Shown piece after piece: positions 7,494 to 28,042 of a stretch of 64,000 nucleotides of DNA. The stretch's first letter is position 1, and the number at the start of each line of letters is the position of its first letter. The stretch is from contig CAVWWD010000003.1 of assembly GCA_963758635.1 (NCBI GenBank), forward strand, positions 907,184 to 971,183, in the 5' to 3' direction. Made by a program: the position numbers and the translations under genes. The DNA comes from an uncultured Candidatus Rokubacteria bacterium. GTDB lineage: Bacteria > Methylomirabilota > Methylomirabilia > Rokubacteriales > CSP1-6. The notes under the pieces are model-generated. The model saw only the letters and a list, made by a program, of their open reading frames with translations, had not been told where the DNA came from and did not search any database.

Positions 7494-8837
7494 GTGCGCT
7501 ACATCTCGAACACCCCGGCCCAGCAGCGCGAGATGCTCGCCACGATCGGGGCGGCGAGCATCGAGGACCTGCTCGCGGCGATCCCGCCGAAGGCCCGGCT
7601 GTCGCGGCCGCTGGCCCTGCCCGCGGCGATGGCCGAGACCGACCTCGTGCGCCACCTCCGCGCGCTCGCCGGGAAGAACGCCGACGCGAACGACCACGCG
7701 TGCTTCCTGGGCGCCGGCGCCTACGACCACGCGGCGCCGAGCCCCATCGACCACCTCGTCCTGCGCGGCGAGTTCTTCACCGCGTACACGCCGTACCAGC
7801 CGGAGGCGAGCCAGGGCACGCTCCGCACCATCTTCGAGTACCAGACCATGATGGCGGAGCTGACGGGCATGGACGTGGCCAACGCGTCCCTCTACGACGC
7901 GGCGTCGTCCCTGGCCGAGGCCGCCCTCATGGCGCACTCGGCGACGGGGCGCGGCGAGGTGGCGCTGTCCCGCGGAGTGAATCCGCTCTACCGCCAGGTC
8001 GTCGAGACGTACGGCGAGGGGCCCGCGCTCCGCGTGCGAACCGTCCCCATCGGCGACGGCGTCACCGACCTCGAGGCGCTCGCGAAGGTCGTCTCCGAGC
8101 GGACCGCCGCCGTCGTCGTCCAGTACCCGAACTTCTTCGGCTGCCTCGAGGACGTGCGCGCGGCGGGGGAGATCGCCCACGCCGCCGGCGCGCTCCTCGT
8201 GGTCGTCGCGGACCCCGTGAACCTCGGCCTGCTCACCCCGCCCGGCGCCTTCGGCGCCGACATCGTCGTGGGCGAGGGGCAGGGGCTGGGCGTGCCGCTG
8301 TCCTTCGGCGGGCCGTACCTGGGCGTCTTCGCCGCGCGGCAGGAGCTGGTCCGGCGCATGCCCGGCCGCCTCGTCGGCGCCACCGTGGACCGCGACGGGC
8401 AGCGCGGCTTCGTGCTCACGCTGCAGACCCGCGAGCAGCACATCCGGCGCGACAAGGCCACCTCGAACATCTGCACGAACGTGGCGCTCTGCGCGCTGAT
8501 GGCCACGATCTACGTGGCCATCCTCGGCAAGCAGGGGCTCCGGCGCGTCGGCGAGCTGTCCCTCGCCAAGGCCCACTACGCGGCCGGGGAGCTCGCGCGC
8601 ATCCCCGGCGTGCGGCTCCGCTACGGCGCGCCGTTCTTCAAGGAGTTCACGCTGGACCTGCCGAAGGCGCCCGAGCGTGTGGCCAAGCGTCTGCTCCGCG
8701 ACCGCATCCTCGCCGGCGTGCCCCTGAAGGCGTTCGACCGCACGCTCAAGAGCGCGCTCCTCGTGGCCGTGACCGAGCGGCGCACGCGCGAGGAGATCGA
8801 CGCCCTCGTCGCGGGCGTCGGCCGCGCGGTGGCCTGA
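7494..8837 (+). CDS. gcvPA: glycine dehydrogenase (decarboxylating) subunit 1
   Basis: ORF 7494..8837 (GTG start), 447 aa, GcvPA similarity throughout. Confidence 0.85.
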   Translation: MRYISNTPAQQREMLATIGAASIEDLLAAIPPKARLSRPLALPAAMAETDLVRHLRALAGKNADANDHACFLGAGAYDHAAPSPIDHLVLRGEFFTAYTPYQPEASQGTLRTIFEYQTMMAELTGMDVANASLYDAASSLAEAALMAHSATGRGEVALSRGVNPLYRQVVETYGEGPALRVRTVPIGDGVTDLEALAKVVSERTAAVVVQYPNFFGCLEDVRAAGEIAHAAGALLVVVADPVNLGLLTPPGAFGADIVVGEGQGLGVPLSFGGPYLGVFAARQELVRRMPGRLVGATVDRDGQRGFVLTLQTREQHIRRDKATSNICTNVALCALMATIYVAILGKQGLRRVGELSLAKAHYAAGELARIPGVRLRYGAPFFKEFTLDLPKAPERVAKRLLRDRILAGVPLKAFDRTLKSALLVAVTERRTREEIDALVAGVGRAVA

Positions 8838-8840
8838 GCC

Positions 8841-10317
8841 ATGGCCGCCACGCGTCCGAGTTACGACAAGCTGATCTTCGAGCTGTCCGCGCCGGGGCGG
8901 TTCGCCCACTCGCTGCCCGCCGCCGACGTGCCGGTGACGGATCCCGCCGCGCTCCTGCCCGCCGCCTTCGTGCGGCCGGCCCCGCCCGAGCTGCCCGAGG
9001 TGTCCGAGGTGGACGTGGTCCGCCACTACTCGCGCCTGTCGCAGATGAACTACGGGCTCGACACGCACTTCTACCCGCTCGGCTCCTGCACGATGAAGTA
9101 CAACCCGAAGATCAACGAGGACATGGCGCGCCTGCCCGGCTTCGCGCGGCTGCACCCGCTCACCCCCGCGGCGGCCGCGCAGGGCGCGCTCCAGGTCATG
9201 CACGAGCTGGCCCGGGACCTCGCCGAGGTCTCGGGCATGGATCACGTCTCGCTCCAGCCCGCGGCGGGGGCGCAGGGCGAGCTGGCCGGCGTGCTGATGA
9301 TCCGCGCCTGGCACCTCTCCCGCGGCGAGCGGCGCCACAAGGTCCTCGTCCCGGACTCCGCGCACGGCACCAACCCCGCCACCACCGCGCTCGCCGGCTT
9401 CCAGGTGGTCGAGCTCACGTCCGAGGCGACCGGCGAGGTCGACCTCGGCGACCTCGAGAAGAATCTGTCCGAGGACGTGGCCGCGTTCATGATCACGCAG
9501 CCGAACACGCTCGGCATGTTCGAGTCGCGGATCCACGCAGATCACCGAGATGTGCCACGCCCGCGGCGTCCAGGTGTACATGGACGGGGCGAACTTCAAC
9601 GCGATCCTCGGCATCACGCGCCCGGGCGACCTCGGCTTCGACGTGTGCCACTTCAACCTGCACAAGACGTTCACGACGCCGCACGGGGGCGGCGGGCCGG
9701 GCGCGGGCCCGGTGGGCGTGAAGGCGCACCTCGCGCCGTTCCTGCCCACGCCGGTCGTGGCGCAGCGCGCGGACGGCGCCTACGACCTCGACTGGCGACG
9801 GCCGCAGTCCATCGGCAAGCTCGTCACGTTCTGGGGCCACTTCGGCATGTTCGTGCGCGCCCTCGCCTACATCCGCACCATGGGCGGAGACGGGCTGCGC
9901 GCGGTGTCCGACAACGCCGTCCTCAACGCCAACTACGTGCTCCGGCGCCTCGAGGGCCACTACGACCGCTCGGCTCCCGGGCCGTGCATGCACGAGTGCG
10001 TCGTGTCGGCGCGGCGCCAGAAGAAGCTCGGCGTCACCGCCATGGACATCGCCAAGCGGCTCCTGGACCTGGGCTTCTACGCGCCCTCGACGTACTTCCC
10101 GCTGATCGTCGAGGAAGCGCTGATGATCGAGCCCACCGAGACGGAGTCCCGGGAGACCCTCGACGCGTTCTGTGACGCCCTGGTGCAGATCGCGCGCGAG
10201 GCCGAGACCGACCCCGCGGTCATCCACGAGGCTCCGGTGACCACGCCGGTGCGGCGGCTCGACCAGACGCTGGCCGCGCGGCGGCCGGTGCTGCGGTGGA
10301 CGCCGCCCGCCCGGTGA
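8841..10317 (+). pseudogene. gcvPB: glycine dehydrogenase subunit 2 interrupted by a single extra base near 9538
   Basis: N-terminal 230 aa in ORF 8841..10175, C-terminal 255 aa in ORF 9550..10317 (+1 frame); removing one c from cacg[c]agatcaccgag restores ...[28 protein letters not shown]. Confidence 0.75.
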
Positions 10318-21664: not shown

Positions 21665-22655
21665 ATGATCCACGTCGACCATCTGACGAAGCGCTACGGG
21701 CCGGTCACGGCCATCCGCGACGTCTCCTTCACGGTCGACGAGGGGAAGGTCGTCGGCTTCCTCGGCCCCAACGGGGCGGGCAAGTCGACGACGATGAAGA
21801 TCCTCTCGTGCTTCATGCCGGCCTCGGGGGGCACCGCGACGGTGGCGGGCTTCGACGTCTTCCGCCAGTCGATGGAGGTGCGGCGCCGGATCGGGTACCT
21901 CCCGGAGAACGCCCCCCTCTACCTCGACCTCTCGGTGGCCGCGTACCTGGACTTCGTCGCCGAGATCAAGGGCGTGTCCCGTGGCGCGCGGAAGGCGCGG
22001 GTGGCCGAGGTGATGGACCGGTGCTTCATCGCCGACATGAAGCACCGGACTGATCGGCAAGCTGTCGAAGGGCTACCGCCAGCGCGTGGGCCTCGCCCAG
22101 GCGCTCCTCGGCGATCCCAAGGTCCTGATCCTCGACGAGCCCACCATCGGGCTGGACCCGCGGCAGATCACCGACATCCGCGCGCTCATCAAGTCGCTGG
22201 CCGGGCAGCACACGGTGATCCTGTCGACCCACATCCTCCCCGAGGTGCAGATGGTGTGCGACGGCATCGTGATCATCAACCGCGGCCGCATCGTGGCCCA
22301 GGGCACCCAGGCGCAGCTCGTCGAGCAGGTGTTCCCCACCGCGCGCGTGGAGCTGGCCGTGGGCGGACCCGCCGACGCCGTCGCCGCCGCGCTGCGCGCG
22401 GTGCCCGGCGTGCTCCGCGTGGCGCCCATCGAGCCCGTTGGCGCGCAGAACGGCGTGGTCGGCTTCGCCGTCGAGTCGCCCCGCGAGCACGACCTGCGCG
22501 AGGAGCTGGGCCGGCTCGTGCTCGCCCGCGGCTGGCGTCTCATCGAGCTGCACCAGGCCGGCCTCAGCCTGGAGGACGTGTTCATCCGCGTGGTCGCGGG
22601 CGAGGAGGCGGCGGAGACGGCCACGATCGAGATGACCGCCGCCGAGGGCGCCTGA
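21665..22655 (+). pseudogene. ABC transporter ATP-binding protein (GldA-like) with an extra base at 22049
   Basis: Walker A GPNGAGKST before, signature LSKGYRQRV and Walker B ILDEPT after the shift (ORF 22086..22655 frame); the frames differ by exactly one base, an inserted a. Confidence 0.75.
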
Positions 22656-26957: not shown

Positions 26958-27518
26958 ATGACCAGGAGACGGCACCTCACGTGCGCCGTCCTGGCGGGCA
27001 TGATCGGGATCCTGGCCCTGGCCGGCGTCGCGCACGCGCAGACGCTCGAGGTCGGCCAGAAGGCCCCCGATTTCACGCTCGCCGGGCCGGGCAACAAGCC
27101 CGTGAAGCTCTCGGAGCTGCTCGGGAAGGGCCCCGTCGTCGTCTACACGTTCATCCAGGCCTTCACCGCGACCTGAATCAAGGAGATCGGCGACTTCGAG
27201 GCGAACCTCGCCCAGTTCGAAGCCGCCAACGCCCAGGTCGTGGGTGTGAGCGCCGATCACGTTGCGACCCTCGATGCCTTCCGCAAGGCCAACCCGACCA
27301 AGCACCTGCTGCTCTCCGACTTCCGGCGCACCATGCTGCCGGCATGGGGCGCGCTGAACACCGACGAGAAGAGCCCGATCTTCCGCTACGCCAAGCGGAC
27401 GTGGTTCATCCTCGACCGCGAGGGCACCGTCCGGTGGAAGAAGATCAACGACAACGCGCTGGACCTCCTCAAGGCCGACGAGGTGCTCAAGGCGCTCAAG
27501 GACTCGGGCGCGTCATGA
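26958..27518 (+). CDS. candidate selenoprotein: secreted AhpC/TSA-family peroxiredoxin, in-frame UGA 27174-27176 at the peroxidatic Cys position (FTAT-U)
   Basis: ORF ending at 27176 (...KAPDFTLAGPG...VVYTFIQAFTAT*) and ORF 27240..27518 share frame 0 with only that single TGA between them; ATG 26958 after ggaagga RBS; signal peptide MTRRRHLTCAVLAGMIGILALAGVAHA. Confidence 0.6.
27189..27212 (+). promoter_or_regulatory. putative bacterial SECIS-like hairpin 12 nt downstream of the UGA (ggcga...cgagg-cgaa-cctcg...tcgcc)
   Basis: Hand-folded; imperfect stem with bulge. Confidence 0.3.
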
Positions 27519-28042
27519 CACGGTCCGTCGCCGCCATGGCGCTGGCGCTCGTCGTGAGCGCCATGGCGGTGGCGTCCGCCGCCGCGCCCGCGTTCGAGCT
27601 CAACACGTACGCCCCGCGGAAGGCCGCGCCCGCGTTCTCCCTGCCCAACCTCGACGGGCGCGGGGTGTCCCTGGAGAGCCTCCGGGGAAAGGTCGTCCTC
27701 CTCTTCTTCTGGGCCACCTGGTGACCGACCTGCCGGAAGGAGTTGCCTTCCGTCAATCGGCTGCACACGGAGTTGAAGGATCGGGGGCTCGAGGTCGTGC
27801 TGGTGACGTTCCGGGAGTCGCCCGAGGTCGTGGCGCGGGCGGTGCGCGAGCGCGGCTACGTCGCCCCCGTGCTGATCGACGCGAGCGGCGACGTCACGGG
27901 CAGGCTCTACGGTGTCTTCGGCCCCCCCACCGCGTACCTGATCGACCGTAAGGGACAGCTCGTCGCGCGGATCGTCGGCGAGCGCGACTGGTCGACCCCG
28001 GAGGCGCGGGCCACGCTCTCGCGCCTGCTCGAGGAAAGGTAA
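27515..28042 (+). CDS. candidate selenoprotein: secreted TlpA/ResA-like thioredoxin-fold thiol:disulfide oxidoreductase, in-frame UGA 27722-27724 replacing the first Cys of CxxC (W-U-P-T-C)
   Basis: ORF 26981..27724 tail (MTRSVAAMALALVVSAMAVASAAAP...LLFFWATW*) and ORF 27743..28042 are in one frame across a single TGA; ATG 27515 overlaps the upstream stop (ATGA). Confidence 0.6.
27734..27752 (+). promoter_or_regulatory. putative bacterial SECIS hairpin: 7-bp stem cggaagg/ccttccg with AGUUG apical loop, 10 nt after the UGA
   Basis: Perfect inverted repeat seen in sequence; G/U-containing loop as in known bSECIS. Confidence 0.4.

Follow-up and report, generated by a model that had tools for sequence, protein, structure and literature searches.

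How are two neighbouring genes translated when each carries a UGA in the middle of its reading frame? The question is raised by a gene pair in a 64,000-nucleotide (nt) stretch of contig CAVWWD010000003.1, from an uncultured Candidatus Rokubacteria bacterium of the phylum Methylomirabilota, which we call the window (Table 1). With a probability that we put at roughly 80% on the sequence evidence, the coupled genes specify an exported peroxiredoxin and a TlpA-like protein, probably its reductant, in both of which the catalytic cysteine (Cys) would be replaced by UGA-encoded selenocysteine (Sec), each UGA being followed by putative hairpins of the selenocysteine insertion sequence (SECIS) type. 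A first-pass annotation of the window had proposed both UGAs as Sec codons, a proposal borne out by three results: (i) TGA is invariant in the orthologues, (ii) homologues carry Cys at the same position and (iii) the downstream RNA structure is confined to the TGA forms.

Table 1. Coordinates of the gene pair, its in-frame UGA codons and the RNA hairpins that follow them (positions in the window).
Feature	Position	Strand	Description
Gene 1, exported peroxiredoxin (predicted; BCP/PrxQ-like, AhpC-TSA fold)	26958..27518	+	186 codons, Sec codon 73
First in-frame UGA, putative Sec codon of gene 1	27174..27176	+	
H1, long hairpin 12 nt past the first UGA	27189..27227	+	minimum-energy fold
H3, 7-bp hairpin ACGCCCA-GGUCG-UGGGUGU	27229..27247	+	1 nt after H1
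Gene 2, exported TlpA/ResA-like thiol:disulfide oxidoreductase (predicted)	27515..28042	+	175 codons, Sec codon 70
Second in-frame UGA, putative Sec codon of gene 2	27722..27724	+	
Hairpin 2, probable canonical bacterial SECIS	27731..27755	+	core stem 27734-27740 / 27746-27752, loop 27741-27745

Gene 1 has an upstream ribosome-binding site (AGGAG) and ends at a TGA (27516-27518) that overlaps the start codon of gene 2 as ATGA, so that the two genes form a translationally coupled pair; gene 2 ends at a TAA (28040-28042). Each gene contains a single in-frame TGA, which falls in the active-site motif T-A-T-U of gene 1 and W-U-P-T-C of gene 2. When Cys was placed at both codons, the translations each matched the Pfam families AhpC-TSA and Redoxin as one domain spanning the TGA (PF00578 covers residues 32-160 of gene 1, with the UGA inside), and gene 2 also matched Thioredoxin_8 across its UGA. 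Gene 1 is closest to the BCP/PrxQ-type thiol peroxidases, and in an alignment with the solved BCP 2cx3 its U73 falls on the peroxidatic Cys (…AFSPVCTKE…). Gene 2 is closest to ResA/TlpA/DsbE; its U70 stands opposite the first of the two Cys of WCxxC both in 3kcm and in the ResA structure 4nmu. Both UGAs occupy the catalytic Cys position.

The state of this codon was followed through 100 orthologous loci, gathered by two scans, the first covering species-representative genomes and the second metagenome contigs. Among Methylomirabilota/Rokubacteria loci of at least 50% identity, the aligned codon is TGA in 77/77 cases for gene 1 and in 97/97 for gene 2. More distant homologues have TGC or TGT, and TGA is found again in some homologues from Betaproteobacteria, Anaerolineae, Pyrinomonadaceae, Binatia and Syntrophobacteraceae. 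The switch between the two states has also occurred within the operon: the Cys-type relatives of gene 2 (loci L161-L164 and L169-L172) carry TGC/TGT, six operons combine a TGA in gene 1 with a Cys codon in gene 2 (L161, L162 and L169-L172) and four show the reverse mosaic (L165-L168). Fold, UGA at the peroxidatic Cys, Cys homologues and TGA orthologues assign gene 1 to the selenoprotein peroxiredoxins (TxxU); a thioredoxin fold, UGA at the first Cys of CxxC, Cys homologues and TGA orthologues likewise assign gene 2 to the TlpA/ResA-like redoxins (UxxC). Both are known selenoprotein families, of which the two genes are new members.

Public annotation records the same codons in another way. Protein searches returned, besides a few full-length Cys forms, hundreds of entries of 100-113 amino acids that start just past each UGA (about 100 amino acids for gene 2); these are truncated gene calls, many of them labelled Methylomirabilota/Rokubacteria. 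The UGA is rendered as W in five entries (P0001-P0003, P0016, P0124) and as G in two (P0007, P0128), evidently because pipelines gave short contigs genetic code 4 or 25 owing to the in-frame TGA. A global reassignment of TGA is rejected: TGA is the commonest ordinary stop in the window, ending 23 of 38 genes, gene 1 included, and the genetic code is therefore not reassigned.

Structure after both UGAs is under nucleotide-level selection and is tied to the TGA state. At the second UGA, the first-pass annotation had drawn a perfect 7-base-pair (bp) stem, CGGAAGG/CCUUCCG (27734-27752), with an AGUUG loop, and our analysis confirms it to the base. This hairpin 2 leaves 9 nt between UGA and stem and 16 nt between UGA and loop, so that loop bases G27742 and U27743 stand 18-19 nt past the UGA, and two lower pairs (27731/27732 with 27755/27754) lengthen it. 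Folded alone it reaches -12.1 kcal/mol (z = -3.5), a stability equalled by 1 of 200 shuffles. Perfect 7-bp hairpins with loops of 3-9 nt occur 2.6 times per kb on the plus strand of the window, which gives a chance of about 3% that one begins in a given 10-nt slot; the single sequence is thus only suggestive, and the case for hairpin 2 rests on comparative data. In the alignment of 66 distinct sequences its nine pairs are 98.7% formed and three of them are altered on both sides (pair 16-28 is AU in 24, GC in 22, GU in 20 and AC in none; Fisher p = 4.5e-6). The compensated changes involve amino-acid swaps (K/E, S/P) as well as synonymous ones (CGG->CGA, CCT->CCC), and the loop bases AGUU are invariant.

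The codons of gene 2 carry a matching imprint. Leu77 is TTG or TTA in 94/94 orthologues and Pro78 is CCT in 92/94, whereas elsewhere in these genes CTC/CTG and CCG/CCC dominate, and TTG/TTA and CCT are rare in the genome; in a sliding comparison, synonymous-codon identity peaks at codons 68-80, the highest of the gene (0.90 vs 0.49 expected). Hairpin 2 is gone in the Cys-type genes of L161 and L163 (…EEAPS…, GCG CCC TCG), and four close Cys-type relatives that keep ELPSVN hold a remnant of it, with an internal mismatch in three of the four; the persistence of SECIS-like remnants in Cys forms has been described in the literature.

The bacterial SECIS model of Zhang and Gladyshev (2005), in the outline given by PMC13188914, comprises an upper stem of 4-16 bp capped by a 3-9 nt apical loop, a G at loop position 1 or 2 (as a rule with G or U after it), a UGA-to-loop distance of 16-37 nt and an energy of -7.5 kcal/mol or lower. 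We scored fits with a strict, bulge-free implementation of this consensus. Hairpin 2 agrees with it throughout: it lies in the coding region right after an in-frame UGA aligned with the Cys of homologues, has a 5-nt loop with G at position 2 followed by U, and its stem length, spacing and energy all fall within the limits; the strict search returns the same hairpin in 65 of the 66 sequences. The reading of the second site as a SECIS thus stands, the hairpin being conserved, fitting the published model, and decaying or vanishing in Cys-type relatives. Hairpin 2 is most likely the canonical SECIS signal for the second UGA. With this UGA in the ribosomal A site, the core stem would stand at the mRNA entrance, where its loop (G27742, U27743) would be bound by the C-terminal winged-helix domains of SelB, which would deliver Sec-tRNA(Sec) in competition with release factor 2.

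The first UGA is less simple. The first-pass annotation had claimed stem-loops after both UGAs, and SECIS-type RNA structure is indeed present at both, but the hairpin at the first site had been mis-drawn. The region 27189-27212 can be drawn as GGCGA.UUCG-AGG-CGAA..UCGCC (-9.2 kcal/mol), and in the window alone this drawing fits the SECIS model, with its AGG loop at a spacing of 22 nt. It is, however, neither conserved nor better than chance: it is not the minimum-energy fold (z = -0.6; 55 of 200 shuffles fold equally well), and across the 66 orthologous sequences of gene 1 its pairs are formed in 55% of cases vs 54% in shuffles, no better than slid controls. As the structure is not conserved in orthologous Sec genes, we rejected it on the alignment as the first-site SECIS.

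What the region forms instead is a pair of consecutive hairpins, H1 and H3. H1, 39 nt long, folds at -20.3 kcal/mol (z = -3.4). Its outer stem pairs 27189-27192 and 27194-27199 with 27217-27222 and 27224-27227; its inner stem (27200-27204 / 27208-27212) closes a triloop, ACC (27205-27207), and is followed by a 3' bulge, CAGU (27213-27216). The outer stem, with the consensus GGCUUCGA/UCGAAGCC, is 94% paired in the 66 sequences and four of its pairs are altered on both sides, with compensations such as UUC…GAA to AUC…GAU, AUU…AAU or UUU…AAA. The inner stem alternates between GCGGC/GCCGC and GGGGC/GCCCC, the subgroup of the window having shifted register to GGCGA/UCGCC; the triloop, ACC in the window, reads NNU in most orthologues and has no conserved G.

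H3 (-9.7 kcal/mol, z = -3.0) carries a loop, 27236-27240, that begins 59 nt past the UGA. It is 97.6% paired in the orthologues. Its pair 57-73 is CG in 56 sequences and UA in 3, and of the five sequences with Ile or Met at codon 97 (an A at column 73), three have U as the last base of codon 91. Synonymous-site conservation in gene 1 is highest at codons 86-96. The hairpin is also present in Sec-type peroxiredoxins of other phyla, where its first codon lies 54 nt from the TGA and compensated variants occur (GCCGAG/CUCGGC, GCUCAG/CUGAGC and ACUGA/UCGGU). Sec forms make on average 6.6 of the 7 H3-register pairs, Cys forms 4.5 (p = 2e-11), and the difference holds for the Sec forms of other phyla alone (p = 1e-4). 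The H3 loop is GGUCG, GGUGG or GUN on an 8-bp stem, and in L102 and L117 AGUUG; it resembles the AGUUR loop of hairpin 2, on a stem equally long. The whole segment from UGA to H3 is structured only in Sec forms: the orthologues score z = -3.0 and the remaining Sec forms -2.3, while 51 Cys forms stay at -0.06. A covariance model of H1 and H3, which also carries sequence similarity, gives 32-51 bits to Sec forms of other phyla on which it was not trained and at most 24 bits to distant Cys forms.

A Shine-Dalgarno-like AAGGAG (27180-27185), 4-9 nt past the first UGA, is nearly invariant in the orthologues; it codes for the conserved K-E of the peroxiredoxin active-site motif. In addition, two subgroups of orthologues have, within the first 40 nt past the TGA, a different and canonical-looking proximal hairpin in place of H1: in eight sequences CUCCUCG-GNUU-CGAGGAG, 16 nt from the UGA and of the same geometry as hairpin 2, and in L015 and L020 CCGGGC-UGGAC-GCCCGG, 19 nt from the UGA. 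SECIS structure thus appears to turn over inside one gene family.

Several points weigh against reading both sites as SECIS-type signals. No single hairpin of gene 1 fits the consensus: H1 satisfies it in spacing (28 nt), stem and energy and lacks the loop G, while H3 satisfies it in loop, stem and energy and lies outside the 16-37 nt range. All seven H3 pairs are also present in 4 of 49 Cys forms, and the conserved peptide A-Q-V-(V/L)-G by itself partly favours the H3 stem, since GCC can pair with GGC and CAG with CUG as reverse complements. The rare codons of gene 2 persist in its close Cys-type relatives, so the codon argument is not independent of common descent; we dropped the TTG/CCT codons as an independent proof of selection at the RNA level, part of their signal being shared ancestry. 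The sequences compared are related, and shuffle controls therefore overstate significance. Finally, ARAGORN detected neither a tRNA nor a tRNA-Sec in the window, and a Pfam scan of its about 40 likely genes found no SelA, SelB or SelD. For the phylum, a report of abundant selenoproteins includes one metagenome-assembled genome with 63 predicted selenoprotein genes (PMC13188914). Taken together, both sites are most likely SECIS-type signals directing Sec insertion.

Which element would then serve the first UGA? A simple hairpin whose loop contains a G and lies 16-37 nt from the UGA is missing from 50 of the 66 orthologous sequences, the window included. H3 is degraded only in L015 and L020 (5 and 4 pairs), both of which have the canonical proximal hairpin CCGGGC-UGGAC-GCCCGG instead. 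H3 or a proximal model-fitting hairpin is found in 80 of 81 distinct Sec sequences, while 40 of 50 Cys forms have neither; the exception among the Sec sequences has an A/U-rich hairpin, GAUAUCA-GGC-UGAUAUC, that fails only the energy cut-off applied. The likeness of H3 to hairpin 2 in loop and stem favours a bipartite signal for gene 1. The first UGA may thus be served by H1 and H3 together, in an architecture that is possibly atypical and undescribed. H1 would fold just outside the mRNA channel, looping out 39 nt and setting the base of H3 beside the channel entrance, and H3 would be presented to SelB at about the physical distance of a canonical SECIS. More tentatively, and at odds somewhat below even, such a bipartite SECIS may be common to Sec-type peroxiredoxin genes from at least four phyla, with H1 as spacer and H3 as the SelB-binding hairpin: a variable H1 starting about 12 nt past the UGA would loop out 33-42 nt, and a conserved H3 of 7-8 bp with a GU-containing loop, 54 nt from the UGA, would reach the ribosomal mRNA entrance.

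The strongest competing explanation of the first site is that H1 alone binds SelB, as an atypical SECIS without a loop G in which SelB might read the conserved 3' bulge (C)AGU. On this view H3 would be accessory or unrelated, perhaps slowing the ribosome as a helicase barrier or arising as a by-product of the codons for A-Q-V-V-G. The position of the H1 loop within the accepted range agrees with this, as do the facts that no other structure at the site is as stable as H1 or covaries as much, that the peptide motif favours the H3 palindrome and that, according to reviews, a fraction of bacterial SECIS elements lies outside the consensus (in one test, bSECISearch overlooked about 13% of known genes). 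We nevertheless consider it unlikely: the sequence and inner-stem register of H1 vary between subgroups and phyla and its loop has no conserved base, whereas H3 retains GU in its loop, as hairpin 2 does, and goes missing only in sequences that have a canonical proximal hairpin.

A second alternative retains the hairpins and changes the amino acid: the UGAs would be read as Cys by a SelC*-type tRNA (tRNA-ReC) carried by SelB. SelC*-type tRNAs that decode UGA as Cys with a SECIS are reported from several uncultured phyla in the account of Vargas-Rodriguez (2018), and the ARAGORN result leaves no tRNA gene in the window that would decide between tRNA-ReC and tRNA-Sec. We regard this as very improbable, since the literature examined contains no report of such decoding for this phylum, in which many selenoproteins are predicted, and since the repeated Sec/Cys switches in the operon fit better if UGA and UGC encode different residues. 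That the UGAs are real stops in split or decaying genes, or sites of non-specific read-through, with hairpins arising by chance or as by-products of codons, is scarcely credible: gene callers do split both genes, two other genes of the window look frameshifted in an imperfect assembly and a 7-bp hairpin near a given site has the chance level given above, yet TGA falls exactly at the catalytic Cys codon in every one of the independent assemblies, with the downstream frame conserved, and the compensatory changes, the frozen rare codons, the localised peak of synonymous conservation and the absence of the structure from Cys forms mean that the comparative sequence data already contradict it.

Among known systems, the prototype SECIS of Escherichia coli fdhF shares with hairpin 2 the stem-loop form and the place within the coding region, immediately past an in-frame UGA, although the two sequences are unrelated, and the structural model of SelB (PMC4605307) has a conserved G about 18 nt after the UGA, as in hairpin 2. 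Gene 1 shares with the selenoprotein peroxiredoxin family (Prx, PF00578) the AhpC-TSA fold, the T-x-x-U motif and widespread Cys homologues, and differs from it by its apparent export (judged by inspection) and by its pairing with a second selenoprotein gene; with 28.5 bits it stays far short of the 270 bits that the NCBIfam PrxU model requires. Gene 2 has the thioredoxin fold and W-U-x-x-C active site of the TlpA-like UxxC selenoproteins, and among solved structures it is nearest to a Geobacter thioredoxin-family protein (3kcm), ResA and TlpA. It scores below every NCBIfam equivalog cut-off, including that of the ResA-like WAxxUGC family (76 vs 300 bits), from which its WUP[TD]C motif differs.

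By inspection, both N-termini (26958-27040 and 27515-27590) are basic, then hydrophobic, and end in an A-x-A-type segment (…LALAGVAHA/Q and …AMAVASA/A). These signal-peptide-like features suggest that both proteins are exported to the periplasm, and the predicted export fits a TlpA-peroxiredoxin pair of the envelope. A functional precedent is the Caulobacter ScsB-TlpA-PprX system of envelope peroxide reduction, in which an exported peroxiredoxin works with a TlpA-like reductase (PMC3322552); the Caulobacter proteins use Cys. The Pfam scan of the window genes found no membrane electron donor of the ScsB/DsbD type beside the gene pair, and for the present locus we infer the peroxiredoxin-TlpA partnership from operon structure only.

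Selenoprotein status corrects the annotation of a widespread Methylomirabilota operon that is split in hundreds of database entries or given W or G at the UGA, and it adds a peroxiredoxin and TlpA-like pair with probable Sec in both partners. The Sec/Sec, Sec/Cys and Cys/Sec mosaics of this operon offer a clean comparative system to follow the birth and decay of SECIS hairpins within coding sequence. Should the distal hairpin prove to be the SelB site at the first UGA, one class of SECIS missed by current predictors would be explained, and a concrete structure would be available for part of the atypical bacterial elements that escape the consensus model and bSECISearch. The rule for the spacing of UGA and loop would then be one of physical rather than sequence distance, which is directly testable.

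Rfam gave no match at gathering thresholds over the whole window, and only chance-level matches around the site at E values up to 10. A search for in-frame TGAs with coding-like flanks returned only two cases besides the proposed Sec codons: 2541-2543, which separates a D-glutamate cyclase gene from a carboxyltransferase gene, and 8835-8837, which separates gcvPA from gcvPB. In both, the TGA is a gene boundary with the next gene following at once in the same frame, and we rejected recoding. Two genes are broken in another manner. In glycine dehydrogenase subunit 2 (gcvPB, 8838-10314) the frame changes after about codon 215, with a break near 9480-9495, and in an ABC-transporter ATPase gene (21665-22652) an apparent frameshift near 22030-22045 lies between the N-terminal half (MIHVDHLTKRYGP…) and the C-terminal half (…LSKGYRQRVGLAQALL…). 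A TGA interruption was rejected for both, the former being an apparent frameshift (an assembly indel or a pseudogene) and the latter a frameshift as well. The two breaks hint at assembly errors in the window; the proposed Sec TGAs are nonetheless confirmed by about 100 independent assemblies.

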